This document shows, piece after piece, positions 7,826 to 64,000 of a stretch of 64,000 nt of DNA. The stretch's first letter is position 1; each line of letters starts with the position of its first letter. Below the pieces are notes generated by a model. It saw nothing but the letters and a program-made list of their open reading frames with translations, was not told the origin of the DNA and searched no databases. A program made the position numbers and the translations under genes. The stretch lies in contig LFCR01000006.1 of NCBI GenBank assembly GCA_001189215.1, forward strand, positions 840 through 64,839, written 5' to 3'. This stretch comes from Parcubacteria bacterium C7867-008 (GTDB lineage Bacteria > Patescibacteriota > Minisyncoccia > Phycocordibacterales > Phycocordibacteraceae).

Positions 7826-8341
7826 TTAGTTCGCTACCGTAACAGAACCGCTATCTGATGCACGAACGTGATTATGGTACTCGAAGGTACCAGCCTTTTT
7901 AAAGGTGAAGCTGTACTTAGTTCCAGATGGTGCAGGGTTACATTCATCGAACGTACCATTCGTATTTGCTCCCTTACTGCAGTGCTGCATGGTGTTAGTA
8001 CCGTCGTAGTCGGTGTGTGTTGGATGTGCGTCTGATGCTACCCACATGTCATGTGAAGAATTATTTACGAACGTTACGGTGTCACCCAGTTTCACACTCA
8101 CCGTCTTAGGAGAGAAGCCTGCATCGGTATAAGTGATCGTAGTTGCCTGGCCACCAGCAACGGTCATTACAGGACCGGTCATTGCGGTGCCTTCATCATG
8201 ATCCGCGTCCATAGTACCTGTGGTAGAAGGAGTCATGACCGCTTCTTGAGGTGCTGCTGCAGTTTGTGTAAATGCAAAGTAACCTATGCAACCAAGGATA
8301 AGTACAAAGATAATGGCAATGATGATTTTCGTGTGGGACAT
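7826..8341 (-). CDS. Membrane-anchored cupredoxin-fold (plastocyanin-like) domain protein (putative)
   Basis: N-terminal TM anchor. KTVSVKLGDTVTFVNNSSHDMW ... H.C ... EYHNH has a beta-sandwich-like pattern with His/Cys/Met candidate ligands in non-canonical spacing. Confidence 0.4.
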   Translation of the reverse strand: MSHTKIIIAIIFVLILGCIGYFAFTQTAAAPQEAVMTPSTTGTMDADHDEGTAMTGPVMTVAGGQATTITYTDAGFSPKTVSVKLGDTVTFVNNSSHDMWVASDAHPTHTDYDGTNTMQHCSKGANTNGTFDECNPAPSGTKYSFTFKKAGTFEYHNHVRASDSGSVTVAN

Positions 8342-9739: not shown

Positions 9740-10825
9740 ATGTCGTTATTTTCAAACCTATTCGGCAGCAAGAAAAGCAGGAGTGTTCTTGGTGTCGATA
9801 TAGGATCTTCTTCACTTAAAGTTGTCCAGCTTCGTCGTGATGGGGAAACTGCAGTTTTAGAGACCTACGGTGAGTTAGCACTGGGTCCGTATGCCGGTGG
9901 AGAAATAGGTCAGGCAACAAACCTTCCTGCAGCAAAGATTGCAGAGACTCTCAAAGATCTAATTCAAGAATCAAGTGTCACCACTACTGACTCTGGTATC
10001 TCTATTCCATTCTCACGTTCACTTCTAACACTCGTAGAATTACCGTATCGAGAGAATCCAGAGGAACAGAAGACAATGATCGAACTTGAAGCTCGTAAGT
10101 ATATTCCAGTGCCGGTTTCTGAAGTGCAACTAGATTGGTTCATCGTTCCAGAACCAGCTGCACAAGGTGCACCAACACCAACCAAGATGAAGGTGCTTAT
10201 TGTGGCGGTGCACAATGATCAACTTACTCTCCTGCAAAGCGTAATTGCTGGAGCAGGTCTCACTGCTACGTTCTACGAGATTGAGATTTTCAGTACTATT
10301 CGCTCTGTAGTTGATGAGCCAGTACTTCCCGTACTAATACTTGATATAGGTGCATCGGCAACAAAGGTATATGTGGTAGAGCATGGCGTTGTTGCGCTTT
10401 CGCACAATATTCCACAAGGAGGACAGGATGTAACACGCAGTATTGCTACCGCACACGGCTATTCCGTATCTAAAGCAGAAGCACTTAAGAAAGAGCATGG
10501 TTTTGCAGATGGGAAGGGAGTATACGAACGTAAGACTATTGAATTAATATTCTCGCGTATCTTTGAAGAGACAAAGCGTGTACTTACGCAGTTTGAAACT
10601 ACTCATCAAAAGACGATTTCCTGCATTGTCCTTACTGGCGGTGGCGGTGTTACTCCTGAATTGGTTAAGTATGCAAAGGAATTCTTTGCTCTTGATGTGA
10701 AACTTGCTGATCCGTTCGCAAAAACTCAGGCACCAGCATTCATGCGCCCGGTACTTGAGCAAATTGGGCCTGAGTTTGCAGTGGCAGTGGGTGTTGCACT
10801 ACGCAAACTTGAAGAAACTGCCTAA
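9740..10825 (+). CDS. pilM: Type IV pilus assembly protein PilM (actin-like ATPase fold)
   Basis: N-terminus SRSVLGVDIGSSSLKVVQL plus two actin-like subdomains. It sits at the head of a pilMNOP-like block. Confidence 0.8.
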   Translation: MSLFSNLFGSKKSRSVLGVDIGSSSLKVVQLRRDGETAVLETYGELALGPYAGGEIGQATNLPAAKIAETLKDLIQESSVTTTDSGISIPFSRSLLTLVELPYRENPEEQKTMIELEARKYIPVPVSEVQLDWFIVPEPAAQGAPTPTKMKVLIVAVHNDQLTLLQSVIAGAGLTATFYEIEIFSTIRSVVDEPVLPVLILDIGASATKVYVVEHGVVALSHNIPQGGQDVTRSIATAHGYSVSKAEALKKEHGFADGKGVYERKTIELIFSRIFEETKRVLTQFETTHQKTISCIVLTGGGGVTPELVKYAKEFFALDVKLADPFAKTQAPAFMRPVLEQIGPEFAVAVGVALRKLEETA

Positions 10826-10885
10826 CTTCATCTTGTGTGTATAACAGGAGACGTAAAGTTGCAGTAAATATCGTATACTCATAAG

Positions 10886-11536
10886 GTGGCTATTTCTCCT
10901 GGCATCCCAACCTCATTTGTTCCAAAACTTCCTGTGCAGGCGCCAAAGCGTCGCATGAGTTTTGCGAACAATCTATTTCTTCTGGTATCACTCGGTATCG
11001 GAGGGCTCGCTATTCTTGCAGCAGTACTTGTTCTCGCGTATGCACAATTCCTAATGCATATAGAAGACACAAAAGCAGCAGAACTTCAGAAGGAACAAGA
11101 ATCCGTTAGTGCTGAGACCGTTAAAGAATACGTACGACTCAAAGACCGATTTAATTCAGGCCAACAACTTCTTTCAAACCACATCACACTGTCTCGATTC
11201 TTCGATGAGCTTGAGGTCCTTACACTTCAGAATGTGCAATTTAATTCACTCCGTCTCTCAGTAGCGGGGGATGGTGCTGCAAAAATCGAGCTTGATGGTG
11301 CAGCAAAGAACTTCAATGCACTTGCGGTGCAGTCTAATGCGGTGGCAAGTGATAAGAAGATAAAACGAGCAATATTCTCTGGTATTCGTTTTGATTCAAA
11401 TACTGAGAAGTCTTCACGTATCTTGTTCAAACTTACCGCAGACCTTGAACCAGACTTGGTGCACGGTGCAACACCAACTCCAGCTGCAGTTCCAGCTGCA
11501 CCGGTCGTGCCTAGTGCAACCACCACAACGCCATGA
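10886..11536 (+). CDS. pilN: PilN-like bitopic membrane protein
   Basis: Single TM (LFLLVSLGIGGLAILAAVLVLAY) followed by a coiled-coil and periplasmic domain, positioned immediately after pilM. The GTG start at 10886 is uncertain; an alternative Met lies at 10955. Confidence 0.55.
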   Translation: MAISPGIPTSFVPKLPVQAPKRRMSFANNLFLLVSLGIGGLAILAAVLVLAYAQFLMHIEDTKAAELQKEQESVSAETVKEYVRLKDRFNSGQQLLSNHITLSRFFDELEVLTLQNVQFNSLRLSVAGDGAAKIELDGAAKNFNALAVQSNAVASDKKIKRAIFSGIRFDSNTEKSSRILFKLTADLEPDLVHGATPTPAAVPAAPVVPSATTTTP

Positions 11537-12096
11537 TCACTCGTCTCTTACCATTCGTAGCACTGCTTGTTGCTGGAGCACTTATCTTCGGCTACATCGT
11601 CCCTACCTATAAAGGCACTATCACTGCAACACAGGGTCGTATACAGAGTTACGAAAATGCTCTTGCGGCAGCAAAGCGTTTTTCACAGAAAGAAGCAGAT
11701 CTCGCGCAGCAGAGAGCTGCTATCGATCCACAACAGCTTGCACGACTTGAAAACTTCCTCCCTGATGGAGTTAATAACGTGCAACTCATTCTTGATATGG
11801 ATGGTCTTGCTGCGCGTTCTGGTATGACACTTTCAAATTTCAATATCGATACCTCTTCGGTGACAAATGGATCAGCTCCATTAAACCCTAATGCACTCGT
11901 ACTTGAATCAGGAGATCCGGTTGATTCTATTGAACTTTCTGTTGAAGCAACAGGAACGTACTCAGAGTTCCGTACATTCCTTGATGGAATCGAGCGTAGT
12001 CTTCGTCCACTTGATATTGTTAATATCGAGGTCTCAAGCGGAGCGAATGGTGTCTATCGATATGTATTGACCATGCGCATCTACTGGCTCCACTAA
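11533..12096 (+). CDS. pilO: PilO-like bitopic membrane protein
   Basis: TM helix LLPFVALLVAGALIFGYIV followed by a coiled coil (QSYENALAAAKRF...) and periplasmic domain. Translationally coupled to pilN by a 4-nt overlap. Confidence 0.55.
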   Translation: MITRLLPFVALLVAGALIFGYIVPTYKGTITATQGRIQSYENALAAAKRFSQKEADLAQQRAAIDPQQLARLENFLPDGVNNVQLILDMDGLAARSGMTLSNFNIDTSSVTNGSAPLNPNALVLESGDPVDSIELSVEATGTYSEFRTFLDGIERSLRPLDIVNIEVSSGANGVYRYVLTMRIYWLH

Positions 12097-12102
12097 ACAC
12101 GT

Positions 12103-12408
12103 ATGCACTTAACTAAAAGCAACATCATACTCGCCATCGCTGCAGGCCTCACGCTTATTGCGGCAGTGTATTACTACTTCTTCTATAACCGCGATACGGG
12201 CCCTGCGGTGGTAGTAGCCGCTCCTGCAAGCGCTGCAGAACTCGACTTTGTGAATCTCGTAGTGCAAATCGACAGTATCTCTTTCAACACGGCTATCTTC
12301 TCTGATCCTCGTTTTACTTCTCTTGTTGATATTCACACTATCGTTGTTCCTGAAGCAGCAGGTCGTCGTGACCCCTTTGCTGCGCTCCCTGGAGCTATTG
12401 CACCGTAG
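12103..12408 (+). CDS. Small PilP-like protein (TM anchor plus C-terminal GRRDPF motif)
   Basis: 101 aa with N-terminal TM. The C-terminus ...PEAAGRRDPFAALP carries the RDPF motif seen in PilP-type pilus-assembly lipoproteins. Its position after pilMNO fits that role. Confidence 0.35.
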   Translation: MHLTKSNIILAIAAGLTLIAAVYYYFFYNRDTGPAVVVAAPASAAELDFVNLVVQIDSISFNTAIFSDPRFTSLVDIHTIVVPEAAGRRDPFAALPGAIAP

Positions 12409-12493
12409 TTGTTTTTCCTTGTCGCTGCGTACGCGCGGCAGCAAGGTATATGTATAATGGATACATGATGCGCATGCGCTGCACAGTCTCTGT

Positions 12494-14260
12494 ATGAACG
12501 TACTCTCCATTCTCACAGATGCGGGACTATTGAAAGCGGAAGACGCTACAGCAATTGCAGAAGAAGCACGTGCCACGCAAACACCAATCGAAACGATACT
12601 TGATAAGCGCGGCATCACGATAGAGCAAATCCTTGCGAAGGAGAGTGAAAAATACGGACTCCCAGCGCGCGCAGTCCCAAATGCTCCACGTGGTAGGGAG
12701 GTGCTTGATCATATTCCAGAGGAGTCAGCGCGGCACTACGGATTTGCACCACTCGCAGTGGTCGATGGTGCGCTTGAAGTGGGTATTATTGATCCTGACA
12801 ATATTGAAGCACTGGATGCGCTTCAGTTTATTTCAAGCAGAGTTGGACTTCCATACAAGTTGTTCCTCATAAGTCAGGCAGATTTTGATAAAGTTCTTGA
12901 AGAATATGGCAGTCTTTCTGAAGAGGTTGGAACGGCGCTATCTGAACTCGAACCAGCTGCTGAAACAGAAGAAGCTAAAGGTAAGGATGGGCAGGTAGAG
13001 ACGGTAATTAAAGAGGATGCGCCAGTTACGAAGATTGTTGCAACGATACTTAGGTACGCGGTAGAAGGGGGTGCCAGTGATATTCACATTGAGCCTGGTA
13101 TAGATAAAACTCATGTTCGCTTCCGTATGGATGGTGATCTGCACACATCACTGGAACTACCGGTGAAAGTGCACCCTGCAGTGGTTGCGCGTATCAAGAT
13201 TCTTTCGCAGATGCGTCTCGACGAGAAACGTAAGCCACAAGACGGTCGTTTCTCGGCACAAGTCGAAGGACGTCGTATCGATTTTCGTGTGTCTACCTTC
13301 CCAACCCAAGGAGGAGAGAAGGTGGTAATGCGTATCTTGGACCGTTCAAAATCAGTAGCAACACTAGAAAGCCTTGGTTTTTCAGAGAAGGATTTCCAAA
13401 TCATAAAGGAGTCACTTGATCGACCATACGGCATCATTCTTATCTCTGGACCTACCGGATCTGGTAAATCAACCACATTGTTCGCGATGCTTTCTGCCAT
13501 TGATCGTGAGACCCAGAACGTTGTCTCGCTTGAAGATCCGGTTGAGTATGAAGTCCCTGGTGTATCACAATCTCAAGTGCATCCTGAAATTGGCTATACT
13601 TTTGCTTCAGGTCTTCGTTCCATTCTTCGTCAGGACCCTGACGTGATCATGGTGGGAGAGATTCGCGATAAAGAGACGGCGCAGCTCGCCATTCAAGCTG
13701 CTCTTACAGGACACCTTGTGTTCTCAACTATTCACACGAATACTGCAGCGGGTGTAATTCCACGTCTCGTGGATATGGGTGTGGATCCCTATCTCATTGC
13801 GCCAACGCTTATTGCAGCTATTGGCCAGCGTTTGGTGCGCAAGCTCTGTCCTGGTGCAGGGGTACCTCAGCCTATTAGTCCAAGTATTAAACTGCTGCTT
13901 GAGAAGGAATTCTCAGATCTTCCACCTGAACATCGCCAGAACCTTCCTGCATTTGATACCGCATTTGAAGCTACCACCACCGCAGATTGTCCAAACGGTA
14001 CTCGTGGGCGTCTTGCGGTGTTTGAAATTCTTCGTATGGATAAGGATCTAGAACGCGTGGTGCTTGAAGACCCAGTAGAGGAAAAAGTATATGCAGCGGC
14101 ACGTGAGAAAGGCATGTTTACGATGCGTGAGGATGCTATCATGAAAGCACTCGCCGGTCAGATTCCGTTCGAGGAAGTGAACACGCTCGGTGGCGCGCTC
14201 CTTGCAGAAAGTGATCCGGAACCGGAAAACAATCCTGAAGCAGCTGCCGCAGCACCCTAG
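12494..14260 (+). CDS. pilB: Type IV pilus assembly ATPase PilB (GspE family)
   Basis: N-terminal GSPII_E_N-like domain, Walker A GPTGSGKSTT, Asp/His boxes, and a C-terminal CPxG...C region. Confidence 0.9.
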   Translation: MNVLSILTDAGLLKAEDATAIAEEARATQTPIETILDKRGITIEQILAKESEKYGLPARAVPNAPRGREVLDHIPEESARHYGFAPLAVVDGALEVGIIDPDNIEALDALQFISSRVGLPYKLFLISQADFDKVLEEYGSLSEEVGTALSELEPAAETEEAKGKDGQVETVIKEDAPVTKIVATILRYAVEGGASDIHIEPGIDKTHVRFRMDGDLHTSLELPVKVHPAVVARIKILSQMRLDEKRKPQDGRFSAQVEGRRIDFRVSTFPTQGGEKVVMRILDRSKSVATLESLGFSEKDFQIIKESLDRPYGIILISGPTGSGKSTTLFAMLSAIDRETQNVVSLEDPVEYEVPGVSQSQVHPEIGYTFASGLRSILRQDPDVIMVGEIRDKETAQLAIQAALTGHLVFSTIHTNTAAGVIPRLVDMGVDPYLIAPTLIAAIGQRLVRKLCPGAGVPQPISPSIKLLLEKEFSDLPPEHRQNLPAFDTAFEATTTADCPNGTRGRLAVFEILRMDKDLERVVLEDPVEEKVYAAAREKGMFTMREDAIMKALAGQIPFEEVNTLGGALLAESDPEPENNPEAAAAAP

Positions 14261-14266
14261 CAACTT

Positions 14267-14668
14267 TTGATATCTATTCTTATGGCCTCTCAGTATCGTA
14301 TCTTTCTCGTTGATGATGACCGTTTTCTTCTCGACATGTATGCCGTGAAGTTTAAGGCTGCTGGCCATGAAGTAACGGCATTCCAGGCGGGTATGCTTGC
14401 ACTTGAAGCGTTACGCACAGGTCCAGCACCTGACGCGCTTCTTCTTGATATCGTAATGCCTGAGATAGACGGGTTCGGTGTACTAGAGACTATTCGCAAA
14501 GAAAATCTTATCCCAACCACAAAGATCATCGTACTTTCGAATCAGGGACAGGAATCTGACATTGAACACGCTAACAAGCTTGGCGTTGCGGGGTACATCA
14601 TCAAGGCATCAGCTATTCCTTCCGAAGTATTCTCTGAAACTATTCGAATAATTGAGAAGCCCGCATGA
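14267..14668 (+). CDS. Stand-alone response-regulator receiver (CheY-like) protein
   Basis: YRIFLVDDD ... LLLDIVMPEIDGF ... KIIVLS ... YIIKA are canonical REC-domain blocks with no output domain. It sits between pilB and pilT and overlaps the pilT start by 4 nt. Confidence 0.7.
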   Translation: MISILMASQYRIFLVDDDRFLLDMYAVKFKAAGHEVTAFQAGMLALEALRTGPAPDALLLDIVMPEIDGFGVLETIRKENLIPTTKIIVLSNQGQESDIEHANKLGVAGYIIKASAIPSEVFSETIRIIEKPA

Positions 14669-15729
14669 GTGGAGCTACCTCCAAAATCGGACCGCTTCTA
14701 GATACCGTTATAAGCGAGGGTGGGTCAGACCTACACCTTTCTGTTGGATCACATCCAATCATCCGTGTGTCTGGTTCTCTCGTACCACTCTTGCAGCATC
14801 CTGTTCTTACAAAAGAAGACACCATGGAGATGTTGAATGCTATGGTGCCTCAAGAGCGTCTTGAGACGTTTGCAAAGGTTCAGTCGGTAGACTTTTCATA
14901 CTCCCATACTGAACAGTCTCGTTTCCGTGTGAACGGATATGTGGTGCAAGGACGTGTGACCATGGCGCTCCGTCTTATCCCACGCGAAACCTTCACTTTC
15001 GCAAACCTAAACCTACCGCCTATTCTTGAAGTGTTTACGCAGCGTACCCAAGGATTCTTCCTTATTGTGGGTCCAGTGGGGCAGGGAAAGTCCACAACGA
15101 TGGCAGCGATTATCGATCGCATCAATGAGACACGTGCAGAACACATCCTTACTATTGAAGATCCTGTGGAATATTTGTTCGAACAGAAGAAGTCTCTTAT
15201 TCATCAGCGTGAAGTACACGTAGATGCACCAGACTTCCAGAGCGCACTGCAGGCAGCATTCCGTGAAGATATGAACGTGATCATGGTGGGTGAGATGCGT
15301 GATCAGGAGACTATCTCTTCAGCCGTAACCGCTGCAGAAACTGGCCACCTTGTCCTTTCAACACTGCATACCAACAATGCAGCACAGACGATCGATCGTA
15401 TCATCGATATGTTCCCTGCAACACAGCAGGATCAGGTCCGTGTGCAGCTTGCAGCATCACTTGCAGGTATCTTCTCGCAGCGTCTTGTCCCACGCATCCA
15501 GGGAGGACTTATCCCTGCATACGAGCTTCTCATTAACAACAACGCCGTTGCTAACCTTATTCGTGAGGGGCGTACCCATGAGATCACCACGGTTGTACAA
15601 ACAAGCTCCCAGGAAGGAATGGTTGATATGGATCGTTCATTGGCCGAACTTGTGCGTCGTGGAGAAGTTACGATTGAACACGCATACGAACGCTCGCTCG
15701 ACCCTAAGACATTTGAACGTTATCTTTAG
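14665..15729 (+). CDS. pilT: Twitching-motility retraction ATPase PilT
   Basis: Walker A GPVGQGKSTT, plus the PilT hallmark AIREG-type motif (LIREGRTHEI) and ETGHLVLSTLHTN. Confidence 0.9.
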   Translation: MSGATSKIGPLLDTVISEGGSDLHLSVGSHPIIRVSGSLVPLLQHPVLTKEDTMEMLNAMVPQERLETFAKVQSVDFSYSHTEQSRFRVNGYVVQGRVTMALRLIPRETFTFANLNLPPILEVFTQRTQGFFLIVGPVGQGKSTTMAAIIDRINETRAEHILTIEDPVEYLFEQKKSLIHQREVHVDAPDFQSALQAAFREDMNVIMVGEMRDQETISSAVTAAETGHLVLSTLHTNNAAQTIDRIIDMFPATQQDQVRVQLAASLAGIFSQRLVPRIQGGLIPAYELLINNNAVANLIREGRTHEITTVVQTSSQEGMVDMDRSLAELVRRGEVTIEHAYERSLDPKTFERYL

Positions 15730-15732
15730 CCT

Positions 15733-16944
15733 ATGCTTTTTGCCTATCGCGCTCTTGATGCAGATGGACATGAACGCTCAGGAAGCGTTGAAGCGCTTTC
15801 ACAGGATGTTGCGGTATCAACACTGCAACGCCGTAACCTGATCGTCTCGTCTATCGAGCCGATGGTGAAAGAGAAGGGGTTGGCAATGAACCTCGACTTT
15901 ATCTTCAGTCACGTCTCTAACAAAGAGGTCGTGATTCTTTCACGTCAGATAGCAACACTCTTCGAGGCGCAGGTGTCTGCGCTCCGCATTTTCCGTCTCC
16001 TTGCTTCGGAGGTGGACAACAAGATACTTGGCGAGATCATGACCCAGGTTGCTGATGATCTTCAAGGCGGAAGTCCGATATCTAAAGCACTTGCACGACA
16101 TCCGAAGGTATTCACTGGTTTCTATGTGAACATGGTGCGATCCGGTGAAGAGTCTGGAAAGCTCTCTGAGACATTCGGGTACCTCGCAGACTATCTTGAT
16201 CGTACCTATGAAGTGATGAGTAAGGCACAAAACGCACTTATCTACCCTGCATTCGTTATCGGGGTGTTCTTTGTGGTTATGGGACTCATGCTCACTGTGG
16301 TTATTCCAAAGATCAGTGTGATTCTCCTTGAATCAGGCCAAGAAGTGCCTCTCTACACAAAGATTGTTATCGGGGTTTCTAATTTCTTGGTGCACTATGG
16401 CTTCCTCTTTATTCTTGCGATGGTTGCTGGGGTAGTGGTTGCCTACCGCATGCTTCAGACAGAGAACGGTAAACTTTTCTTCGATAGTCTCAAACTCGAC
16501 TTACCGTATATTGGTGATCTGTATTCAAAGCTCTATCTCTCACGAATTGCAGATAACTTTGCAACGATGCTTGTTTCCGGTGTGCCACCAGTGGAAGCCG
16601 TGGAAACAACTGCTGCGGTGGTCGGTAGTGCAACCTTCCAAGATCTTCTTCGTGAAGCTGCAGAAGAAGTGAAGGGAGGTGTACCTATATCTGAAGCCTT
16701 GGGTAAGCACCCAGAAATTCCAGGCATCATGGTGGCCATGATCCGTGTGGGTGAGGAAACAGGAGAACTTGGAAACATTCTAAATACTCTTGGTAAGTTC
16801 TATCGTCGTGAAGTGTCTAACTCTGTTGATACCTTGGTGGGTCTTATTGAGCCACTCATGATCGTTTTCCTTGGCCTTGGTGTTGGTACTTTGCTCGCAT
16901 CGGTGATGATTCCGATCTACAACCTTGCGGGTGCAATCAACTAA
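15733..16944 (+). CDS. pilC: Type IV pilus platform protein PilC (GspF family)
   Basis: Two GspF-like repeats (EAQVSALRIFRLLAS ... and DNFATMLVSGVPPVEA...) and 3 TM segments. Confidence 0.85.
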   Translation: MLFAYRALDADGHERSGSVEALSQDVAVSTLQRRNLIVSSIEPMVKEKGLAMNLDFIFSHVSNKEVVILSRQIATLFEAQVSALRIFRLLASEVDNKILGEIMTQVADDLQGGSPISKALARHPKVFTGFYVNMVRSGEESGKLSETFGYLADYLDRTYEVMSKAQNALIYPAFVIGVFFVVMGLMLTVVIPKISVILLESGQEVPLYTKIVIGVSNFLVHYGFLFILAMVAGVVVAYRMLQTENGKLFFDSLKLDLPYIGDLYSKLYLSRIADNFATMLVSGVPPVEAVETTAAVVGSATFQDLLREAAEEVKGGVPISEALGKHPEIPGIMVAMIRVGEETGELGNILNTLGKFYRREVSNSVDTLVGLIEPLMIVFLGLGVGTLLASVMIPIYNLAGAIN

Positions 16945-17047
16945 ATAAAGGCATTATCCACACGTTAGCGCATATGTATGTATTCTTCACGTACAATACA
17001 TATAGCGGAACATTACTCGTAACCCGCATAACTTACTTAATCAAACT

Positions 17048-17551
17048 ATGACATCTGTATCTTCTGCGGCACGACGCGGTTTCACTCTCATCGAGCTCCT
17101 CGTCGTTATCGCCATCATCGGTATTCTCTCTTCTGTAGTGCTCGCATCTCTCAACACAGCACGTAACAAGGGAGCTGACGCTTCAGTGAAATCAAACCTC
17201 GGCGAAGCACGCGCTCAGGCTGAACTTTTCTACGACGCAAACGGTAACAAGTACCTTGTCGCTGCAGGTGCAACTACTGACGTTTGTGCTCCTACTGGCC
17301 TCGTTGGCGGTGTTAAGGGTATTGCAACATCAGTAACTGCAGCAGCTGCTGCAACTGGCGCAACATACACCGGTACACTTGCTAACCCTAGTACCGCTAC
17401 TGTTGCTGCTTGTCACGCACTTGCTGACGGTAGCGCATGGGCAGCTTCTGCTCCTCTCAAGGCAACTACGGGTTACTACTGTGTTGACAGCACTGGTAAC
17501 GCTACCAGCACTGCAACAGCACTTGCTGGAGGTATTGCAGTTTGCAGCTAG
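17048..17551 (+). CDS. Type IV major pilin, paralog 1
   Basis: Class III signal RRG/FTLIELLVVIAIIGILSSVVLASL with Glu+5, and a C-terminal Cys pair. Confidence 0.85.
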   Translation: MTSVSSAARRGFTLIELLVVIAIIGILSSVVLASLNTARNKGADASVKSNLGEARAQAELFYDANGNKYLVAAGATTDVCAPTGLVGGVKGIATSVTAAAAATGATYTGTLANPSTATVAACHALADGSAWAASAPLKATTGYYCVDSTGNATSTATALAGGIAVCS

Positions 17552-17575
17552 TCTCCAACTGGCAACTCTTGTGCG

Positions 17576-17604
17576 GAAAGAAAGCGCCGAAAGGCGCTTT
17601 CTTC
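17576..17604 (+). terminator. Perfect 13-bp stem/GAAA tetraloop hairpin between pilin 1 and pilin 2 (attenuating terminator)
   Basis: GAAAGAAAGCGCC-GAAA-GGCGCTTTCTTC. U-rich 3' arm. Confidence 0.55.
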
Positions 17605-17625
17605 ATATACGTAATCCCCACGGAG

Positions 17626-17655
17626 TAGGAGGGGGTATAAAGTATCTCGTATACT
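17626..17655 (+). promoter_or_regulatory. Putative promoter TAGGAG-N18-TATACT, 7 nt before the pilin-2 ATG (leaderless-type)
   Basis: The same -35-like hexamer, spacer length and position relative to the ATG recur upstream of pilins 3 and 4. Confidence 0.45.
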
Positions 17656-17662
17656 GAAACGT

Positions 17663-18169
17663 ATGACTCCTTCGTGCGCTCATACGCGCGGTTTCACTCT
17701 CATCGAGCTCCTCGTCGTTATCGCCATCATCGGTATTCTCTCTTCTGTGGTGCTCGGGGCTCTTAATTCAGCGCGCAACAAAGCAGCCGATGCAGCCATA
17801 AAATCGAATCTAGAAAATGCACGAAAGCAAGCAGCACTTTTTTATGAAACGAACGGCGGTAGGTATGTTGGTGCTGCAGGTACTGCAACAGACGTTTGTT
17901 CGCCACTTGCTTCGGTCGGGAGCCCTGCGGTAAAAGGTATTTACGGTTATGTTTCTGCTGCTGCAACTGCAGCCGGCATCTCACCCACAGTAGTCATGAA
18001 TGGTACTGATAGTTCAGCAATCGCTGCTGCTTGTCATGCAAATGCTGCGGTGTGGGGAGCTGAGGTACCACTCAAATCCAATCCCTCACTTAATTTTTGC
18101 GTCGATAATTATGGGACTGCAACCATTACTCCAACGGTTCTTAATGGTGCTTTTGCTACGTGCAGCTAA
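17663..18169 (+). CDS. Type IV major pilin, paralog 2
   Basis: TRG/FTLIELLVVIAIIGILSSVVLGAL. The mature N-terminal 25 aa are near-identical to paralogs 1, 3 and 4; the C-terminal domain diverges. Confidence 0.85.
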   Translation: MTPSCAHTRGFTLIELLVVIAIIGILSSVVLGALNSARNKAADAAIKSNLENARKQAALFYETNGGRYVGAAGTATDVCSPLASVGSPAVKGIYGYVSAAATAAGISPTVVMNGTDSSAIAAACHANAAVWGAEVPLKSNPSLNFCVDNYGTATITPTVLNGAFATCS

Positions 18170-18181
18170 TCCACATGTACA

Positions 18182-18217
18182 TAGGAATGAATAGCAACAT
18201 ATACGTATAATACGTAT
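18182..18217 (+). promoter_or_regulatory. Putative promoter TAGGAA-N18-TATAAT plus tandem palindromes ATACGTAT-A-ATACGTAT abutting the pilin-3 ATG
   Basis: The -10 TATAAT (18206-18211) ends 6 nt before the ATG. Two copies of the self-complementary octamer ATACGTAT overlap the -10 and reach the start codon, consistent with an operator. Confidence 0.45.
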
Positions 18218-18718
18218 ATGACTTCACTACGCGTGTTCACACGCGGTTTCACTCTCATCGAGCTCCTCGTCGTTATCGCCATCATCGGTATTCTCTCTTC
18301 TGTGGTGCTCGCATCTCTCAACACAGCACGTAACAAGGGAGTTGATGCTGCGGTAAAGACAAATCTTGGTGAAGCACGTGGTCAAGCTGAACTTTTCTAC
18401 GACGCAAATAATTTTCACTATGTGGGGACAGCAGGTACGGTTGATGATGTTTGTTTCTCAGGTGCATCAGTAGGAGGTGTACGTGGTATCTATGGATCAG
18501 TATCTTTTGCAGGAACATCTAGCGGTGGTTCACCAACAGTTGCAATGACAGGTTCCCCGAGTTCTCCAACAGAAGCTGCGTGTCATGCGGACATGACTGC
18601 ATGGGCAGCATCAGCTCCTCTTCGTCATCAGGTGAATATGTATTACTGCGTAGATAGCACGGGTATTGCGACCGTTACACCAAACGTTCTTCCTGCAGGC
18701 CAGTTGTATTGCAGCTAA
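18218..18718 (+). CDS. Type IV major pilin, paralog 3
   Basis: MTSLRVFTRG/FTLIELLVVIAIIGILSSVVLASLNTARNKG. The 5' ~200 nt are nearly identical to paralog 1. Confidence 0.85.
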   Translation: MTSLRVFTRGFTLIELLVVIAIIGILSSVVLASLNTARNKGVDAAVKTNLGEARGQAELFYDANNFHYVGTAGTVDDVCFSGASVGGVRGIYGSVSFAGTSSGGSPTVAMTGSPSSPTEAACHADMTAWAASAPLRHQVNMYYCVDSTGIATVTPNVLPAGQLYCS

Positions 18719-18730
18719 TCCCCATATCGG

Positions 18731-18766
18731 TAGGAGGGAATACCTATATATACGTATAATACGTAT
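18731..18766 (+). promoter_or_regulatory. Putative promoter TAGGAG-N18-TATAAT plus tandem ATACGTAT palindromes abutting the pilin-4 ATG
   Basis: Same architecture as 18182-18217. The 47 nt upstream of the ATG and the first ~75 nt of the coding sequence are near-identical to the pilin-3 copy. Confidence 0.45.
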
Positions 18767-19306
18767 ATGACTTCACTACGCGTGTTCACACGCGGTTTCA
18801 CTCTCATCGAGCTCCTCGTCGTTATCGCCATCATCGGTGTACTCTCAAGTATTGTTCTTTCATCACTGAACCAAGCAAGGAATAAAGGTAATGACGCTGC
18901 AGTGAAATCAAACCTTGATAATGCGCGTGCACAGGCGCAGCTTTTCTATGACACCAATGGAAATCGTTTCGTGGTAACACCAGGAACCGCAACTGATGTG
19001 TGTGCAGCAACAGCGTCAGTCGGCTCCCCAGCGGTTTCTGGCGTCTTTAGTTTCGTAGCAGCAGCTGCGCGTGCAGCAGGCTATGGAACGGTAAATAACA
19101 CTATTACCGTTACGGGCGGGGCAGCAGTTGTAACGTGTCACGCGTGTTATACCGGTCAGGCCAGTACGGACTGCACGACAGAAGGACGCTGGGCAGCTGA
19201 AGCACCTCTCAAAACAACTGGTCAGGTGTATTGTGTGGACTCTTCTGGTTTAGCAAGTACTACCACTCAAACACTTGGTGCAGGTGATACTAAATGCGCT
19301 GGATAA
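18767..19306 (+). CDS. Type IV major pilin, paralog 4
   Basis: MTSLRVFTRG/FTLIELLVVIAIIGVLSSIVLSSL. Longer C-terminal domain with four Cys residues. Confidence 0.85.
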   Translation: MTSLRVFTRGFTLIELLVVIAIIGVLSSIVLSSLNQARNKGNDAAVKSNLDNARAQAQLFYDTNGNRFVVTPGTATDVCAATASVGSPAVSGVFSFVAAAARAAGYGTVNNTITVTGGAAVVTCHACYTGQASTDCTTEGRWAAEAPLKTTGQVYCVDSSGLASTTTQTLGAGDTKCAG

Positions 19307-19312
19307 GCTTTC

Positions 19313-20077
19313 GTGATTTCTCCACTCTTTATCTCATTCATCTTGTTCGTACTTGGGGCGCTCAGCGCTAGTTTTACTGGTGTTGTTGCAGAACGTATAC
19401 ATACGGGACAATCGTGGGTACGAGGAAGATCACGCTGTAATTCATGTGGAACCCTACTTGATGCGCGTGATCTTTTTCCCGTTATATCTTGGTTCCTGTA
19501 TCTGGGACGATGTCGTACCTGCCGTGCACGAGTGCCAATGACGTATGTCGTCACAGAGATTGCACTTGGTACATCATTTGTTCTTGCCTATACTACTATT
19601 GGACTCACATCGGTACTTCCATTCTTTCTCGTTGGTCTGACCGTCTTACTGTTCATAGTTCTCTATGATCTTCGGCATATGGTGGTCCCCACAGGATCAT
19701 CAAACAGTCTCATTGTGCTCTCTCTCATTATCGCGTTTCTTAGTGCGCACAGTAGTAAGGAATTTGGTCTTGTTCTAGTATCTTCTGGCGTAATTGCGCT
19801 CTTCTTTTTCCTTATGCATGTGCTTTCGAAGGGTAGGGCAATGGGGCTTGGAGACGCACCAGTTGCACTCGCACTTTCGCTAATGGTTGGTACATATGCC
19901 TTCGCTGGGGTGATGTTCTCTTTTTGGATTGGTGCGTTGTACGGCATAGTTGTATTGAGTACAAGGCGCGGAGGGCCTAGAATGGGTATAGAGGTTCCAT
20001 TCGTGCCGTTCTTGGCACTTGGCTATCTCCTCGCTTTCTTCTCTACATGGAATCCATTCGCACTCGTTCTCTGGTAG
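19313..20077 (+). CDS. pilD: Prepilin peptidase PilD (A24 family)
   Basis: N-terminal tetra-Cys CNSCG...CRTCR zinc motif and 6-8 TM helices. Confidence 0.85.
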   Translation: MISPLFISFILFVLGALSASFTGVVAERIHTGQSWVRGRSRCNSCGTLLDARDLFPVISWFLYLGRCRTCRARVPMTYVVTEIALGTSFVLAYTTIGLTSVLPFFLVGLTVLLFIVLYDLRHMVVPTGSSNSLIVLSLIIAFLSAHSSKEFGLVLVSSGVIALFFFLMHVLSKGRAMGLGDAPVALALSLMVGTYAFAGVMFSFWIGALYGIVVLSTRRGGPRMGIEVPFVPFLALGYLLAFFSTWNPFALVLW

Positions 20078-20733
20078 CACATCGGCCCCAAAAGCGACGT
20101 GGCTTTACTCTCGTAGAGCTTCTCGTGTCTCTTTCTATTGTTTTTCTTATCTCTGCCATTGCGATTACCGGACAATCAACCTTCAATCAAGGTATTCTTT
20201 TGAACGATACAGCGTATAGTCTTGCCCTTTCAACACGCCAAGCTCAATCACTTGGCCTTTCAAGTAGGAAGTTTGCAGGGGTGCAGAATGGTGGGTATGG
20301 CATCTATGTTACTAATAATGCACCTATCAACTCGTACATCATCTTTGCCGATATAAATAGTGTTCCAAGCGGCCCATCTTGGTGCACCGCAGTTGCATCA
20401 TCCACACCGGAATCAAAGTCAGGCAACTGTATGTATGATGGATTAGGCGAGACATTTCAGACTTATACCTTAACTCGCGGTTTCACTATCAGTGATTTCT
20501 GCGGGAAGACTCCCACGGGTTTGAAGTGTGCAAGTACTGATGATGTCGCATCGGTACATGCACTTTTCCTCCGTCCCAATACTAGCTCTGTTATCACGGG
20601 TGTATCACCAGGTGGTACTAAGATAGCCTTCTCTTGCCTCCAATTCTCATTACGTGCACCGGGAGGAACAGCCGTGCAAACAGTACGTGTGACACAGGTC
20701 GGTGAGATATCCGTTGGACAAATATGCTCATAA
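20047..20733 (+). CDS. Minor pilin / pseudopilin
   Basis: KRRG/FTLVELLVSLSIVFLISAIAI prepilin signal. Overlaps the pilD 3' end by 31 nt. Confidence 0.6.
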   Translation: MESIRTRSLVAHRPQKRRGFTLVELLVSLSIVFLISAIAITGQSTFNQGILLNDTAYSLALSTRQAQSLGLSSRKFAGVQNGGYGIYVTNNAPINSYIIFADINSVPSGPSWCTAVASSTPESKSGNCMYDGLGETFQTYTLTRGFTISDFCGKTPTGLKCASTDDVASVHALFLRPNTSSVITGVSPGGTKIAFSCLQFSLRAPGGTAVQTVRVTQVGEISVGQICS

Positions 20734-20735
20734 CT

Positions 20736-21281
20736 ATGAAATCATCACGCTCAGGTTTTTCCCTTATTGAACTTATCGTTTCGGTAGGTCTGTTTGCAGT
20801 GGTCATGCTTATCTCAACAGGCGCATACCTTTCGTTGGTAAGTCTCGATCGAAAAGCACGAGCAACCAACGATCTGGTGACTAATCTTTCCTTTGCCATA
20901 GATACTATGGAACGATCCCTTCGCACTGGCTCAGACTTTACCTGTACTGGCACTACTCCTGATACAGGCGGTGGTGGTGGAGAAGACTGTAGATACGGAA
21001 GCCACACTATTTCCTTCACCGATGATCTTTCACAATCTGTTACCTATAAACAACTTGAAGGTGCTGTGCAGCAATGTGTTGGGCTTTCGTGTAGCACGCT
21101 TACTGACCCACGTGTAAATGTTTCAGATGTAACGTTCTATGTGCGCGGACAAGGAACAACGGACAGCATACAACCGTGGGTTACCTATAGTGTGAAGGGG
21201 ACCATAACTCCTGATGCTGTAAACGGGCCAATTACATTTACTATTCAGAGCACGGCATCACAGCGTAAAATAGATCTATGA
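20736..21281 (+). CDS. Minor pilin / pseudopilin
   Basis: MKSSRSG/FSLIELIVSVGLFAVVML prepilin signal. Start taken at the internal Met after the upstream stop. Confidence 0.6.
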   Translation: MKSSRSGFSLIELIVSVGLFAVVMLISTGAYLSLVSLDRKARATNDLVTNLSFAIDTMERSLRTGSDFTCTGTTPDTGGGGGEDCRYGSHTISFTDDLSQSVTYKQLEGAVQQCVGLSCSTLTDPRVNVSDVTFYVRGQGTTDSIQPWVTYSVKGTITPDAVNGPITFTIQSTASQRKIDL

Positions 21282-21790
21282 TCAAACCTCGTTCAGGATT
21301 CACGTTGGTTGAAACGCTGGTGGCCATCGCTATCCTAACGATAAGTATTGTTGGCCCGTACTACTCCATCTATAAGGCAGTACAGACCACTTATATCGCA
21401 CGTGACAAACTTATCGCCACGTCACTTGCACAAGAGGGTGTTGAATATGTACGTAACACTCGTGACAGCAACTATCTCTATAATATTGCTAATCCTGGAT
21501 CTCCGGTGAATTGGATGTATACCCTTACTCCATGCAAGGGAATGAAGTGTACTGTTGATGTAACAGGATATCAGCCACCAACAGCATGTGCTACGACCTG
21601 TACGCCACTCAACCTTACTCCCAGCAACCTCTATAGTTACAGTAGCGGTACCGTAACGCGATATACACGCAGTGTAATAATCACTGACGTTACACCTACA
21701 GAGGTAGTCGTAGTAGTAACGGTTAGTTGGAAAAATGCACAGGTAAACAATTCACTAGTTGTTACGGAGCATCTCTATAATTGGCTATGA
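21278..21790 (+). CDS. Minor pilin / pseudopilin
   Basis: MIKPRSG/FTLVETLVAIAILTISIVG. 4-nt overlap with the upstream gene. Confidence 0.6.
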   Translation: MIKPRSGFTLVETLVAIAILTISIVGPYYSIYKAVQTTYIARDKLIATSLAQEGVEYVRNTRDSNYLYNIANPGSPVNWMYTLTPCKGMKCTVDVTGYQPPTACATTCTPLNLTPSNLYSYSSGTVTRYTRSVIITDVTPTEVVVVVTVSWKNAQVNNSLVVTEHLYNWL

Positions 21791-22998
21791 TTCGTACTCG
21801 AACACCAAAAGGCTTCACGCTTCTCATAGCAATTATTCTTTCAACCGTTGTTCTCTCGGTCGGCCTCTCATTGCTTGATGTGGCATATAAGCAAACCATT
21901 CTTGCTTCGACTGCAAAACAATCAGAGCTTGCTTTCTATAATGCAGACTCCGCACTTGAGTGTGCACTGTACTATGATCAGAAATTTAATGCCTTCGATT
22001 ATGACTCTCCTATAGGAGCAGGTGCAATTACCTGCAGCAGTACTCCTGTTACGAACTACACCAGAGATATAAGTGATCCGACAAAACACATCACCATCTT
22101 TGCACTCCCCTGTGCTGATGGAGGTTCCTACGCAACTACCACCATATATAAGTATCCAGGAGGAGCTACTGCACTCTATGCCAATGGTTTCAACACGTGT
22201 AATGCAGCTGACCCCGCACGCATTGAACGCGGCCTCAAAGCTACATATGGTGATCCTGCAGCAGCTCCTGGCCCAGGACCTGGTGGAAGTGCAAGTTATT
22301 TGATCGTAGGTGGCGGTGGTGGCGGTGGTGCAGGTGGCGGTGGTGGTGGCGGAGGCGGACAGGTTAATACCGGCTCACTCGCTCTGACAGGAGGTACTAC
22401 CTATCCGATTGTAGTTGGTACTGGGGGTGTAACGGGTGTTTCTGGTGGTCCTGCAGCAAACGGCACACTCAGTTCTGCCTTTTCGGTAACCTCTCTTGGT
22501 GGTCGTGGTGGAAGTCTGGTAGCTAGAGACGGTGGAGCGTCGGGTTCAGGTAATGCAGGTGGAGCAACAGGGCCTATTGGTAGCGGTGCTGGCGGTGGCG
22601 GTCAGGCTAGTGTGGGCCAAGATGGGCCTGTGATGGGTGGCGGTAATGGTGGTACAGGAGTAAATAACGCACTTTCTGGTGTGTCTGTTGGCTATGCAGG
22701 TGGTGGCGGTGGTGGTACCGGGCCGTCTGGTGGTCCGGCAGGATCTGCTACTCACGGCGCTGGCGCTGGCGGTGCAGCGGCAGTAGCAGGTGTTTCTGGA
22801 ACCGCAAATACGGGTGGCGGCGGTGGCGGCGGTGGAGGTAGTTTTGGTTCTGGACCGGGTGGTACTGGAGCCGATGGTGTGGTTATCGTGAGTTACCCAA
22901 CCGGCACTATCATAGGAGCAACAGGAGGCTCTAAAACTACGTCAGGCGGAAATACCATCCACACATTCGTCACAAGTGGCTCTCTCGTAATTCCATAG
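21781..22998 (+). CDS. PilX-like minor pilin with long Gly-rich C-terminal extension
   Basis: The N-terminus PKG/FTLLIAIILSTVV lacks Glu+5. It is followed by KQ..LAS.AKQSELAFYNADSALECALYY, matching PilX-like N-domains. Residues ~160-370 are poly-Gly and Gly/Ser/Thr/Ala low complexity. Confidence 0.55.
   Translation: MAMIRTRTPKGFTLLIAIILSTVVLSVGLSLLDVAYKQTILASTAKQSELAFYNADSALECALYYDQKFNAFDYDSPIGAGAITCSSTPVTNYTRDISDPTKHITIFALPCADGGSYATTTIYKYPGGATALYANGFNTCNAADPARIERGLKATYGDPAAAPGPGPGGSASYLIVGGGGGGGAGGGGGGGGGQVNTGSLALTGGTTYPIVVGTGGVTGVSGGPAANGTLSSAFSVTSLGGRGGSLVARDGGASGSGNAGGATGPIGSGAGGGGQASVGQDGPVMGGGNGGTGVNNALSGVSVGYAGGGGGGTGPSGGPAGSATHGAGAGGAAAVAGVSGTANTGGGGGGGGGSFGSGPGGTGADGVVIVSYPTGTIIGATGGSKTTSGGNTIHTFVTSGSLVIP
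22300..22372 (+). repeat. (GGY)n glycine-codon microsatellite inside the PilX-like gene
   Basis: An uninterrupted run of ggt/ggc/gga codons encoding about 24 consecutive Gly. A slippage-prone simple repeat. Confidence 0.6.
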
Positions 22999-23042
22999 AT
23001 TTGATAATTTCCTCATTCCGTATTTACGCATACAATAGATAG

Positions 23043-44860: not shown

Positions 44861-44999
44861 TCTCGCAACGAGACGGATACGGCCTCTAAATCAGTCAGAA
44901 ATGACGGGTATAGGGGCCTTCTTCATGCATTCCTAATGGTAGAATTACAAGAACAGTGACTTTTCCGTAGGGATGAGTATCTGGGGCATAGCGTGTGAT

Positions 45000-62732: not shown

Positions 62733-62800
62733 GAGCAGAGTATAGCACCAACTAGGTATTCAATTCATGAAAAGGTCAAAATGCTAGAATGATACGTATT

Positions 62801-64000
62801 ATGGTCACAACCGAGGAAGAATCTATCTCATTTCCCGCAAAGCTCCGGATTTTCTGGCGTCACGTTGGCCAGTATAAAGGCGTTCTCATACTGGTCTCGT
62901 TCCTTGGGGTCTTGTCTGCAGTAGCTAATGGTGTGGTTCCGCTTGTGATGGGACGGTTCTTTGATTCCTTGGTACAGACCAGCCAGGTGACACTTCCTGT
63001 GGTAGGTGAAGTAATGAATTGGCAGTTCCTCTTAGGATTGTGGGTGTTCGTGCAACTGGTAGCAAATACTATTGATTGGCTTATTAGTCAGCAGAGTCGT
63101 TCCTTAACAACAACGATTGAAGCACGGTATACCGTGGATGCGTTTAGTCGTCTTCTTAAACTTCCCGTTGGTTTCTTTAAACAGCAGAAGGCAGGTGAGC
63201 TTGTAAACAAGATCAGTCGCACCAGCTCACAAATAGGATGGATACTCGGAAGTGTTCTCATTGGTCTCGCACCTTCATTCCTTTCAATTGTGGTTGGTCT
63301 AGGAATTGTGTTCTGGCTCCGTCCGGTCCTTGCATTGGTGCTGGTAGTTGGACTTCTTTTCTATGGCCTATGCTGGTTCTTCTTCCTACGCCCTGTGGGA
63401 AAGCTTCAAGAAGAATATTTAAAGAAATGGAGTGATGCCTATGGTGAGGTGTATGACTCCTATGCAAACCTCCAGACTGTAAAGCAGTCTGGAGCAGAAT
63501 TCCTTCAAGCTGAGAAAGCGAACGAAGGATTCTTTGGTACCGGTCGCACGGTATGGCTTTGGAACAAGTTGGAATTTGCTTGGAACAATATGAATGCGCT
63601 GCAGCGTATTCTCGTTGTTGCTACCCAGCTCATCATATTCCTCATATCAGTCGCATTCATCACTCGTGGAGAGATGACCATCGGAGAACTTATTACGTTC
63701 AACGCTTATGCAGCATTGGTGTTTGGACCATTCGTACAGCTTGCGAACCAATGGCAGAACGTACAAAACGGTCTCACGGCTGCAGCACAATCTGAAATCA
63801 TCTTCGCAACAGAAACTGAACCGTACGATCCGCCCGATGCCGTAGCACTTGATCCATTTAACGGTTCAGTTGTATTCAATGACGTTCATTTTGCATATGA
63901 AGAAGGGCAACCGGAAATATTAAAGGGCGTCTCTTTCGAAGCAAACCCAGGACAGGTTATTGCATTTGTTGGAGAGACCGGTGCAGGTAAGAGCACTTCT
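62801..64000 (+). CDS. ABC transporter permease/ATP-binding fusion (MsbA/exporter type), 3'-truncated at window end
   Basis: Manual translation from ATG 62801 gives a 6-TM ABC_membrane domain followed by ...GSVVFNDVHFAYEEGQPEILKGVSFEANPGQVIAFVGETGAGKST (Walker A). The frame is open to the last base. Confidence 0.75.
   Translation, partial: MVTTEEESISFPAKLRIFWRHVGQYKGVLILVSFLGVLSAVANGVVPLVMGRFFDSLVQTSQVTLPVVGEVMNWQFLLGLWVFVQLVANTIDWLISQQSRSLTTTIEARYTVDAFSRLLKLPVGFFKQQKAGELVNKISRTSSQIGWILGSVLIGLAPSFLSIVVGLGIVFWLRPVLALVLVVGLLFYGLCWFFFLRPVGKLQEEYLKKWSDAYGEVYDSYANLQTVKQSGAEFLQAEKANEGFFGTGRTVWLWNKLEFAWNNMNALQRILVVATQLIIFLISVAFITRGEMTIGELITFNAYAALVFGPFVQLANQWQNVQNGLTAAAQSEIIFATETEPYDPPDAVALDPFNGSVVFNDVHFAYEEGQPEILKGVSFEANPGQVIAFVGETGAGKSTS

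Follow-up and report, generated by a model that had tools for sequence, protein, structure and literature searches.

Type IV pili are the main known means by which candidate phyla radiation (CPR) bacteria, or Patescibacteria, achieve host attachment, motility and probably DNA uptake; to our knowledge, almost nothing is known of how their pilus genes are expressed, because most of these lineages are uncultured. Here we describe four tandem major-type pilin genes, p1 to p4, in a 64,000-nt stretch of the genome of Parcubacteria bacterium C7867-008 (contig LFCR01000006.1, positions 840 to 64,839; hereafter the window, whose own numbering is used throughout). Taken as a whole, it is probable that in a type IV pilus locus of a Paceibacteria/Parcubacteria (CPR) bacterium these genes form the part that encodes the major pilins, with the history of exchange and the transcriptional layout set out below.

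The best-known exchange among pilin genes is the pilE/pilS antigenic variation of Neisseria, in which gene conversion proceeds from silent, promoter-less, 5'-truncated donors. The window resembles this system in its apparent non-reciprocal recombination among pilin copies with conserved segments. However, the Neisseria donors lack a promoter and the conserved 5' coding region, whereas all four copies here begin with an ATG, encode a leader peptide and the conserved N-terminus, and have a -10 hexamer, and while Neisseria moves the variable 3' part into a single expression locus, here the 5' tracts are homogenised and the 3' parts divergent. A first-pass annotation of this DNA had seen in the array the layout of antigenic-variation cassettes; that comparison fails, as each copy is complete, down to its promoter and signal peptide, and exchange affects the constant 5' end, not the variable 3' end. 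In Thermus thermophilus, PilA4 and PilA5 are alternative major pilins that form wide and narrow pili, which are functionally different filaments. There, as here, one assembly machinery serves alternative major pilins, but Thermus has no such tandem array with homogenised 5' ends.

Leaderless transcription and translation are known from Mycobacterium and Deinococcus. Like leaderless genes in those genera, p2, p3 and p4 have a -10 hexamer 6–7 nt upstream of an A/GTG start and no Shine-Dalgarno motif, although in this lineage the design is predicted from sequence only. A source for leaderless expression is Cortes et al. 2013, as cited in PMC12641261.

In the monoderm Streptococcus sanguinis, PilE1 and PilE2 are adjacent major pilins that are co-assembled in a heteropolymeric type IV pilus (PMC6497953, PMC10628169). 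By analogy they are the likeliest functional model for p1 to p4: in both cases complete, adjacent major-pilin paralogs occur in one pil locus of a bacterium with no outer membrane, and share a common N-terminal helix while presenting a different globular surface. Unlike the two S. sanguinis genes, the window has four copies, 57–63% identical over their full length, with separate predicted promoters and a p1 that is probably insulated by a terminator. At the sequence level there is next to no similarity to PilE1 (8pfb, E = 0.48).

The saccharibacterium TM7x has two type IV pilus systems with the major pilins PilA1 and PilA2, and its pili mediate host binding and motility; promoter or conversion analysis is not reported in that work (PMC11623550, PMC9894109). 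TM7x is likewise a CPR bacterium rich in pilin genes, and its major pilins are of the type IVa-like "lollipop" form, but its two major pilins have separate loci and ATPases, whereas here four paralogs share one machinery. By analogy, host binding and motility are the likely biological role of the pili encoded in the window. Against this background the multi-pilin array is an ordinary variation on known loci and does not overturn current views. It makes modest additions in the form of evidence for leaderless expression in Patescibacteria, concerted evolution of pilins, and a TTATCCACA element at pilin promoters; in the literature we found no report of leaderless expression in Patescibacteria, of concerted evolution among pilin paralogs, or of TTATCCACA near pilus genes or pilin promoters.

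The four pilins and their shared 5' cassette

The four genes lie on the + strand. The first, p1 (17048-17551; 167 aa), is the conserved primary major pilin, with an ortholog directly after pilC in every relative. It is followed by p2 (17663-18169; 168 aa), an accessory paralog with a predicted leaderless mRNA, by p3 (18218-18718; 166 aa), a mosaic paralog, and by p4 (18767-19306; 179 aa), which carries a 12-residue insertion with two extra Cys. The first-pass description of four tandem major-type pilin paralogs holds: all are complete open reading frames (ORFs) that match Pfam N_methyl (E = 5e-9 to 3e-7, better than the curated cut-off). Each encodes a class III signal motif, ...RG/FTLIELLVVIAIIG, with Gly(-1), Phe(+1) and Glu(+5) followed by a hydrophobic segment of about 20 residues, and they keep the expected company, with PilM, PilB, PilT and PilC encoded upstream and PilD immediately downstream. 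Cleavage and N-methylation by PilD and assembly into a filament would be expected for this class of type IV pilin.

The four proteins had been described as sharing the same prepilin leader and N-terminal helix. This is true of the helix segment; the leader peptides match at only 3/8 residues, except between p3 and p4, and the part common to all four begins at Arg-Gly-Phe. The C-terminal domains are divergent, as had been noted, but not unrelated, being homologous with four conserved Cys. Among solved structures the best matches are type IV major pilins, such as PilA 8tum (residues 12-134, E = 3e-6), which is the only match to reach residue 134; the Thermus PilA 6xxd is also among the matches, with similarity confined to the N-terminal helix.

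At the nucleotide level an exact 48-nt core, CGCGGTTTCACT...CATCGGT, is identical in all four genes. It covers codons Arg-2 to Gly+14 and occupies 17075-17122 in p1, 17687-17734 in p2, 18242-18289 in p3 and 18791-18838 in p4, always on the + strand. The perfect run extends to 62–70 nt in p1, p2 and p3, and p1 and p3 differ by one mismatch in 90 nt, so the near-identical 5' cassette of the first-pass annotation is borne out by alignment. Because the amino-acid sequence of mature residues 1-29 is almost invariant clade-wide, protein identity in this segment is uninformative and synonymous sites carry the information. Among codons for identical amino acids, those that differ in the cassette number 1/31 for p1/p3, 5/28 for p1/p2 and 4/28 for p2/p3, compared with 33/69, 38/63 and 37/65, respectively, elsewhere in the genes (Fisher p 3e-6 to 2e-4). 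Drift of the shared sequence at synonymous sites had been named in advance as the finding that would argue against gene conversion. Instead, these sites are nearly frozen in the cassette (as in the single p1/p3 difference) and close to saturation elsewhere, which supports conversion. Outside the cassette 48–69% of conserved codons differ, indicating that the duplications are old and the 5' end is young.

The same contrast appears among relatives. We retrieved 66 loci orthologous by PilC (57–89% identity), all from Parcubacteria/Paceibacteria-type CPR genome bins, and compared pilins within and between 59 related genomes. Of 52 within-genome paralog pairs, ten show 0/29 codon differences, although their remaining sequence is only 29–59% identical, while none of 5099 between-genome pairs is codon-identical over these 29 codons and a median of 52% of codons differ. 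For codons 1-16 alone, 21/52 paralog pairs are identical as opposed to 1/1711 ortholog pairs, 43% of positions differing between orthologs. Nucleotide-level selection and codon bias are thereby ruled out as the source of the identity. That no conversion took place, and that p1 to p4 are recent duplicates whose 5' identity reflects purifying nucleotide selection or strong codon bias, is scarcely credible: the N-terminal amino acids are indeed nearly invariant across the clade and between-genome synonymous change is somewhat lower in codons 1-16 (43%) than in codons 17-29 (61%), but the synonymous divergence elsewhere in the genes implies old duplications, cassette synonymous sites vary freely among orthologs, and the mosaic breakpoints are not the same from pair to pair.

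These breakpoints are clearest in p3. From -19 of the ATG to +72, a span of 91 nt comprising promoter, leader and core, p3 and p4 are identical. Beyond this p4-like tract, p3 is identical to p2 over cassette positions 49-70 (22 nt) and close to p1 over positions 71-105 (33/35), giving a mosaic of three donors. Together, the sequence comparisons indicate that the 5' cassette is homogenised by repeated short-tract gene conversion, that is, by concerted evolution. Quantified concerted evolution confined to the segment that forms the filament core would explain why pilins with new surfaces can still be handled by one assembly machine.

Promoters and transcription units

The arrangement TAGGAR-N18-TATAMT reported upstream of three of the genes is found exactly three times in the 64 kb, where 0.01 would be expected, and each copy lies 6–7 nt before the ATG of p2, p3 or p4. 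At p2 it reads TAGGAG-N18-TATACT (17626-17655, +), with the -10 hexamer at 17650-17655, 7 nt before the ATG; at p3 TAGGAA-N18-TATAAT (18182-18211, +), with the hexamer at 18206-18211, 6 nt before the ATG; and at p4 TAGGAG-N18-TATAAT (18731-18760, +), with the hexamer at 18755-18760, again 6 nt before the ATG. Since the p3 and p4 promoters fall within the single 91-nt identical tract, they count as one observation and not two. A scan for the sigma-70 consensus found no TTGACA-type promoter in 16800-19500, and hairpins in the intergenic regions of p2 to p4 are no better than those of shuffled sequence (z -0.4 to +0.4).

This geometry is not restricted to pilins. A -10-like hexamer lies 5–9 nt before the start of 13/59 genes in the window (0.5 expected), mostly at exactly 6 nt, which makes the p2–p4 arrangement the normal design of first genes in this genome and not a pilin speciality. 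A Shine-Dalgarno-like 4-mer precedes 1/59 window genes, against 4.9 expected. With a -10 hexamer near the start and no Shine-Dalgarno motif, p2, p3 and p4 are most likely transcribed as leaderless mRNAs. The earlier proposal of leaderless transcription fits these three genes and does not fit p1, where the -10 hexamer is 50 nt before the ATG. Evidence for Shine-Dalgarno-free, leaderless expression matters for gene calling and for genetic tools in this lineage. More generally, the genome appears to be without Shine-Dalgarno motifs, and in about one-fifth of genes the start follows a -10 hexamer at a distance of exactly 6 nt.

The TAGGAR motif forms a conserved island amid diverged flanks in the three paralogous promoters, and two candidate roles for it were rejected. 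As a shared -35 element it is absent at the -35 position of the other window promoters and of box-bearing pilin promoters in relatives (see below). As a Shine-Dalgarno site, TAGGAGG is about 31 nt from the ATG and has no in-frame ATG, GTG or TTG 5–12 nt downstream; of 31 copies of AGGAGG in the window, none is in a Shine-Dalgarno position.

All four pilin promoters carry a second element further upstream, to which the first-pass annotation does not refer. A search of the 64 kb for TWATCCMCA gives four matches; all are on the + strand, and every one sits 29 or 30 nt upstream of a pilin -10 hexamer. The p1 box, TTATCCACA (16954-16962, +), lies 29 nt upstream of the -10 and matches the DnaA-box consensus at 9/9 positions. 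The p2 variant, TAATCCCCA (17612-17620, +; 7/9), also lies 29 nt before the -10; the p3 variant, TAATCCACA (18167-18175, +; 8/9), overlaps the p2 stop, and the p4 variant, again TAATCCCCA (18716-18724, +; 7/9), overlaps the p3 stop, both being 30 nt before the -10. A gTTATCCACA-like box precedes the first pilin in 54/59 related genomes. The spacer from box to -10 is 29 nt in 41 cases, 30 nt in 15 and 33 nt in three, whereas the distance from -10 to ATG ranges from 6 to 76 nt; the fixed spacing of the box provides independent support for the -10 assignments of p2, p3 and p4. In 1.05 Mb of related loci the box has only nine copies elsewhere. When metagenome contigs are counted in, this arrangement is seen at 112 distinct pilin promoters, 12 of them leaderless; the design box-N29-TATAAT-N7-ATG is that of the third pilin of the closest relative by PilC (RYN_391, locus L002) and recurs in about 12 further CPR pilin genes. 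A box that is pilin-specific and deeply conserved could be used to find its regulator.

The p1 box is a complete match to the DnaA 9-mer and is kept in more than 50 genomes. In contrast to the clustered DnaA boxes of replication origins, the pilin box is single, strictly oriented and fixed at 29–30 nt from the -10; dnaA and oriC lie outside the window. It is conceivable, if rather unlikely, that the TTATCCACA box is a site for DnaA or another regulator that ties pilin transcription to the replication or cell-cycle state, while the cassettes yield shaft variants by unequal recombination. If so, all four pilin promoters in the genome would answer to one signal, in ultra-small host-dependent bacteria.

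The p1 promoter differs downstream of the box. Its predicted -10 hexamer, TACAAT (16992-16997, +), lies 50 nt before the ATG and is almost invariant among 34 aligned orthologous promoters, which run from TACAAT through 7–8 nt to AGCGGA...CCCGC, with the ATG about 50 nt downstream. In the window the AGCGGA...CCCGC element (17004-17027, +) is conserved in sequence and lies at the predicted 5' end of the mRNA, so that p1 is predicted to be expressed from a leadered mRNA whose leader of about 50 nt is conserved in relatives. A structured leader was considered and rejected (an invariant 4-bp stem with no covariation in RNAalifold; fold z -1.6); as the possible stem never varies, only sequence conservation is claimed for this leader. 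In a sister clade the leader of the primary pilin is about 27 nt long and contains ATTAGCC or ATTAACC.

A hairpin follows p1 at 17578-17603 (+; arms 17578-17588 and 17593-17603), with 11 perfect pairs, where 13 had been reported, around a GAAA loop (fold z -4.1). Of the p1 orthologs, 46/59 are likewise followed by a stem of 8 bp or more, in the form of comparable A-tract/U-tract hairpins. The U-rich CUUUCUU is the 3' arm itself and not 3' of the stem, and a simple terminator scan did not call the hairpin. It is likely an intrinsic terminator that insulates p1. At the other end of the array, pilD starts 6 nt after the p4 stop, and because of this short gap and the lack of a terminator it is probably co-transcribed with the accessory pilins. 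The array is likely laid out as an insulated p1 unit with high expression and, after it, an operon that takes in the accessory pilins, pilD and the minor pilins and within which up to three leaderless promoters would lie.

Palindromes, array evolution and alternative readings

The p3 and p4 promoters additionally contain the octamer ATACGTAT, which has six copies in the window (0.82 expected), four of them in these two promoters. The octamers had been described as two abutting copies over each -10 box. They do overlap the -10, but they are separated by 1 nt and form one perfect palindrome: 23 bp at p3 (CATATACGTAT-A-ATACGTATATG; 18198-18220), spanning the -10 and ATG, and 21 bp at p4 (18748-18768), over the -10 and gene start. 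Both are centred on TATAAT and include the ATG. The sequence ATACGTATA occurs twice as a 9-bp tandem repeat whose junction creates the -10 hexamer TATAAT, and for this reason the symmetry may be a by-product. Elsewhere, TAGAAT-g-ATACGTAT-t-ATG occurs at 62785-62803, before an unrelated ABC-transporter gene (ATG at 62801) whose end is beyond the window. At 17603-17613, between the p1 hairpin and the p2 box, there is an 11-nt half-site, TCATATACGTA, of the p3/p4 palindrome, which may either be left over from the duplication unit or match by chance.

The palindrome had been put forward as an operator, and it could be bound by a dimeric repressor specific to p3 and p4. The length and perfection of the symmetry over the -10 hexamer and start site, the over-representation of the octamer, and the position of 5/6 copies between a -10-like hexamer and a start codon are all in keeping with such a role. 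However, the element is absent from all 78 other loci compared, the closest relative included, which weakens the idea by the criterion of conservation in related genomes that had been named in advance, and its presence at both p3 and p4 is explained by the single 91-nt conversion tract. Moreover, the tandem repeat may account for the symmetry, a domain scan of the locus found no DNA-binding regulator, and the fifth copy of the octamer precedes the unrelated ABC-transporter gene. We consider a repressor operator unlikely.

The composition of the array varies among relatives: major-type pilins number one in 24 genomes, two in 29 and three in six, and four are found only in the window. The C-terminal domains evolve fast, that of p1 being 57% identical to its ortholog in the closest relative while PilC is 89% identical. 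The nearest sequences to p2 and p3 are p1 and one another, so they appear to be local duplicates, whereas p4 groups with second-type pilins of other genomes.

Based on these observations, we propose the following model. The p1 gene would be a self-contained unit composed of the TTATCCACA box, the 29-nt spacer, TACAAT, the leader of about 50 nt, the ORF and the hairpin terminator, while p2, p3 and p4 would be lineage-specific tandem duplicates that each retain a box 29–30 nt from a TATAMT hexamer and whose transcripts continue through pilD and the genes for the minor pilins. Short-tract conversion, possibly seeded by the strongly conserved helix-coding sequence, would maintain nucleotide identity over Arg-Gly/Phe and the hydrophobic alpha-1 helix segment, as the surface-exposed C-terminal domains diverge quickly. 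Several shaft subunits could then fit the same machinery and filament core while showing different surfaces, either mixed in one filament or used as alternatives. The switching of pilus tip chemistry that was suggested earlier does not apply, as major pilins build the shaft of the pilus and not its tip. The 48–90-nt identical direct repeats would also leave the array prone to expansion, contraction and the formation of chimeras by unequal recombination.

These properties invite another reading, in which the 5' cassettes serve RecA-mediated switching of the expressed C-terminal domain, making the array a programmed pilin-variation device like pilE/pilS in purpose. Identical direct repeats of 48–91 nt exceed the minimum for homologous recombination, p3 is chimeric, copy number ranges from one to four among relatives, and C-terminal evolution is very fast, all as such a device would have it. 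Yet none of the copies is a silent donor, each being complete and having a promoter of its own, and the exchanged part is the constant segment, which leaves the protein unchanged. By inspection, 16945-17047 contains no G-run of the Neisseria type (the G-quadruplex initiation element), nor was another initiation element seen upstream of p1, and a domain scan found no recombinase or invertase gene in the locus. Strain variants were not found either: an exact 41-mer scan of metagenome contigs gave 0 matches, but it also missed a contig that carries the sequence (JGI 3300001199, locus L001), so this null result is not evidence of absence. That contig holds part of the array and may share its sample with the window, for which reason it is not taken as independent confirmation of the assembly. 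On balance a programmed device appears distinctly doubtful, and concerted evolution of complete, individually expressed genes remains our preferred explanation.

The palindromes could also act as RNA. On p2 read-through transcripts each would fold into a 10-bp hairpin that hides the AUG of p3 or p4, limiting translation to the genes' own leaderless transcripts, which lack the 5' arm. The predicted fold is fairly stable (dG -10.2 kcal/mol, z -4.3) with the AUG inside the hairpin, p2, p3 and p4 have no terminators between them, and internal genes of this genome are without Shine-Dalgarno motifs. Against this, the element is present in no relative, its stem is AU-rich, and a tandem-repeat by-product accounts for the symmetry equally well, which makes translational masking highly improbable.

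Several observations weigh against the model of concerted evolution and box-associated promoters itself. The p1/p4 cassette difference (8/27) is not significantly below that of the rest of the gene (p = 0.066), which limits conversion of p4 to the 48-nt core and the tract in common with p3. About half of the related genomes with at least two pilins show no cassette homogenisation, which is frequent in the PilC-defined clade and not universal, and more distant CPR arrays either lack it or show the reverse pattern. A terminator arm could be the origin of the TAATCCCCA boxes of p2 and p4, which would then be its relics: at many accessory pilins of more distant CPR bacteria, AAATCCCCAGC...GCTGGGGATTT terminators abut a leaderless -10 hexamer, and in these ATCCCCA is one arm of the terminator hairpin. 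A terminator scan found none among p2, p3, p4 and pilD, making polycistronic read-through possible, and start sites and promoter activity are predictions from the DNA sequence. Finally, an AlphaFold2 model from the four-sequence alignment has a mean predicted local distance difference test score (pLDDT) of 63, with a helix at 14-64 and three short C-terminal strands; at this low confidence the globular fold is tentative.

Two features of distant CPR loci may be recorded here. In one of them (L097) tandem pilins are 94% identical C-terminally and differ at 24/87 nt in the N-terminal cassette, the reverse of the window. A AAATCCCCAGC...GCTGGGGATTT hairpin fused directly to a leaderless TATACT promoter was seen ahead of accessory pilins in L084, L097, L123, L129 and about 25 other metagenome loci.

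Gene order and other features of the window

Based on the ORF list, Pfam and homology searches, positions 9740-23000 constitute a type IV pilus locus with the gene order pilM, pilB, CheY-like gene, pilT, pilC, p1 to p4, pilD and minor pilins. PilM (9740-10825) is separated by two unassigned ORFs from PilB (12494-14260), which is followed by a receiver-only, CheY-like response regulator (14267-14668), PilT (14665-15729) and the PilC platform protein (15733-16944, +), which served as the anchor for fetching orthologous loci. Downstream of the array are the prepilin peptidase PilD (19313-20077, +; Pfam A24_N_bact and Peptidase_A24) and three or four minor pilins ending at 22998. In a Pfam/domain scan of the locus no DNA-binding regulator domain was detected, the receiver-only CheY-like protein alone being present. 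An Rfam scan of the whole window returned two tRNAs only, neither near the pilins. The product of the final pilin-like gene (21781-22998, +) is 405 aa long and includes an extended glycine-rich domain (Pfam Gly_rich_2); it may be a tip or adhesin subunit.

CPR bacteria do not usually carry respiratory genes. The window encodes a heme-copper oxidase subunit I (54286-56253, -; COX1, E = 2e-144) and a cupredoxin-like protein (7826-8341, -). A parcubacterium with respiratory capacity is on record (PMC5220378). The window also encodes a 1404-aa protein (44973-49187, +) with a dockerin type I domain at its C-terminus, which is unexpected for a CPR genome.

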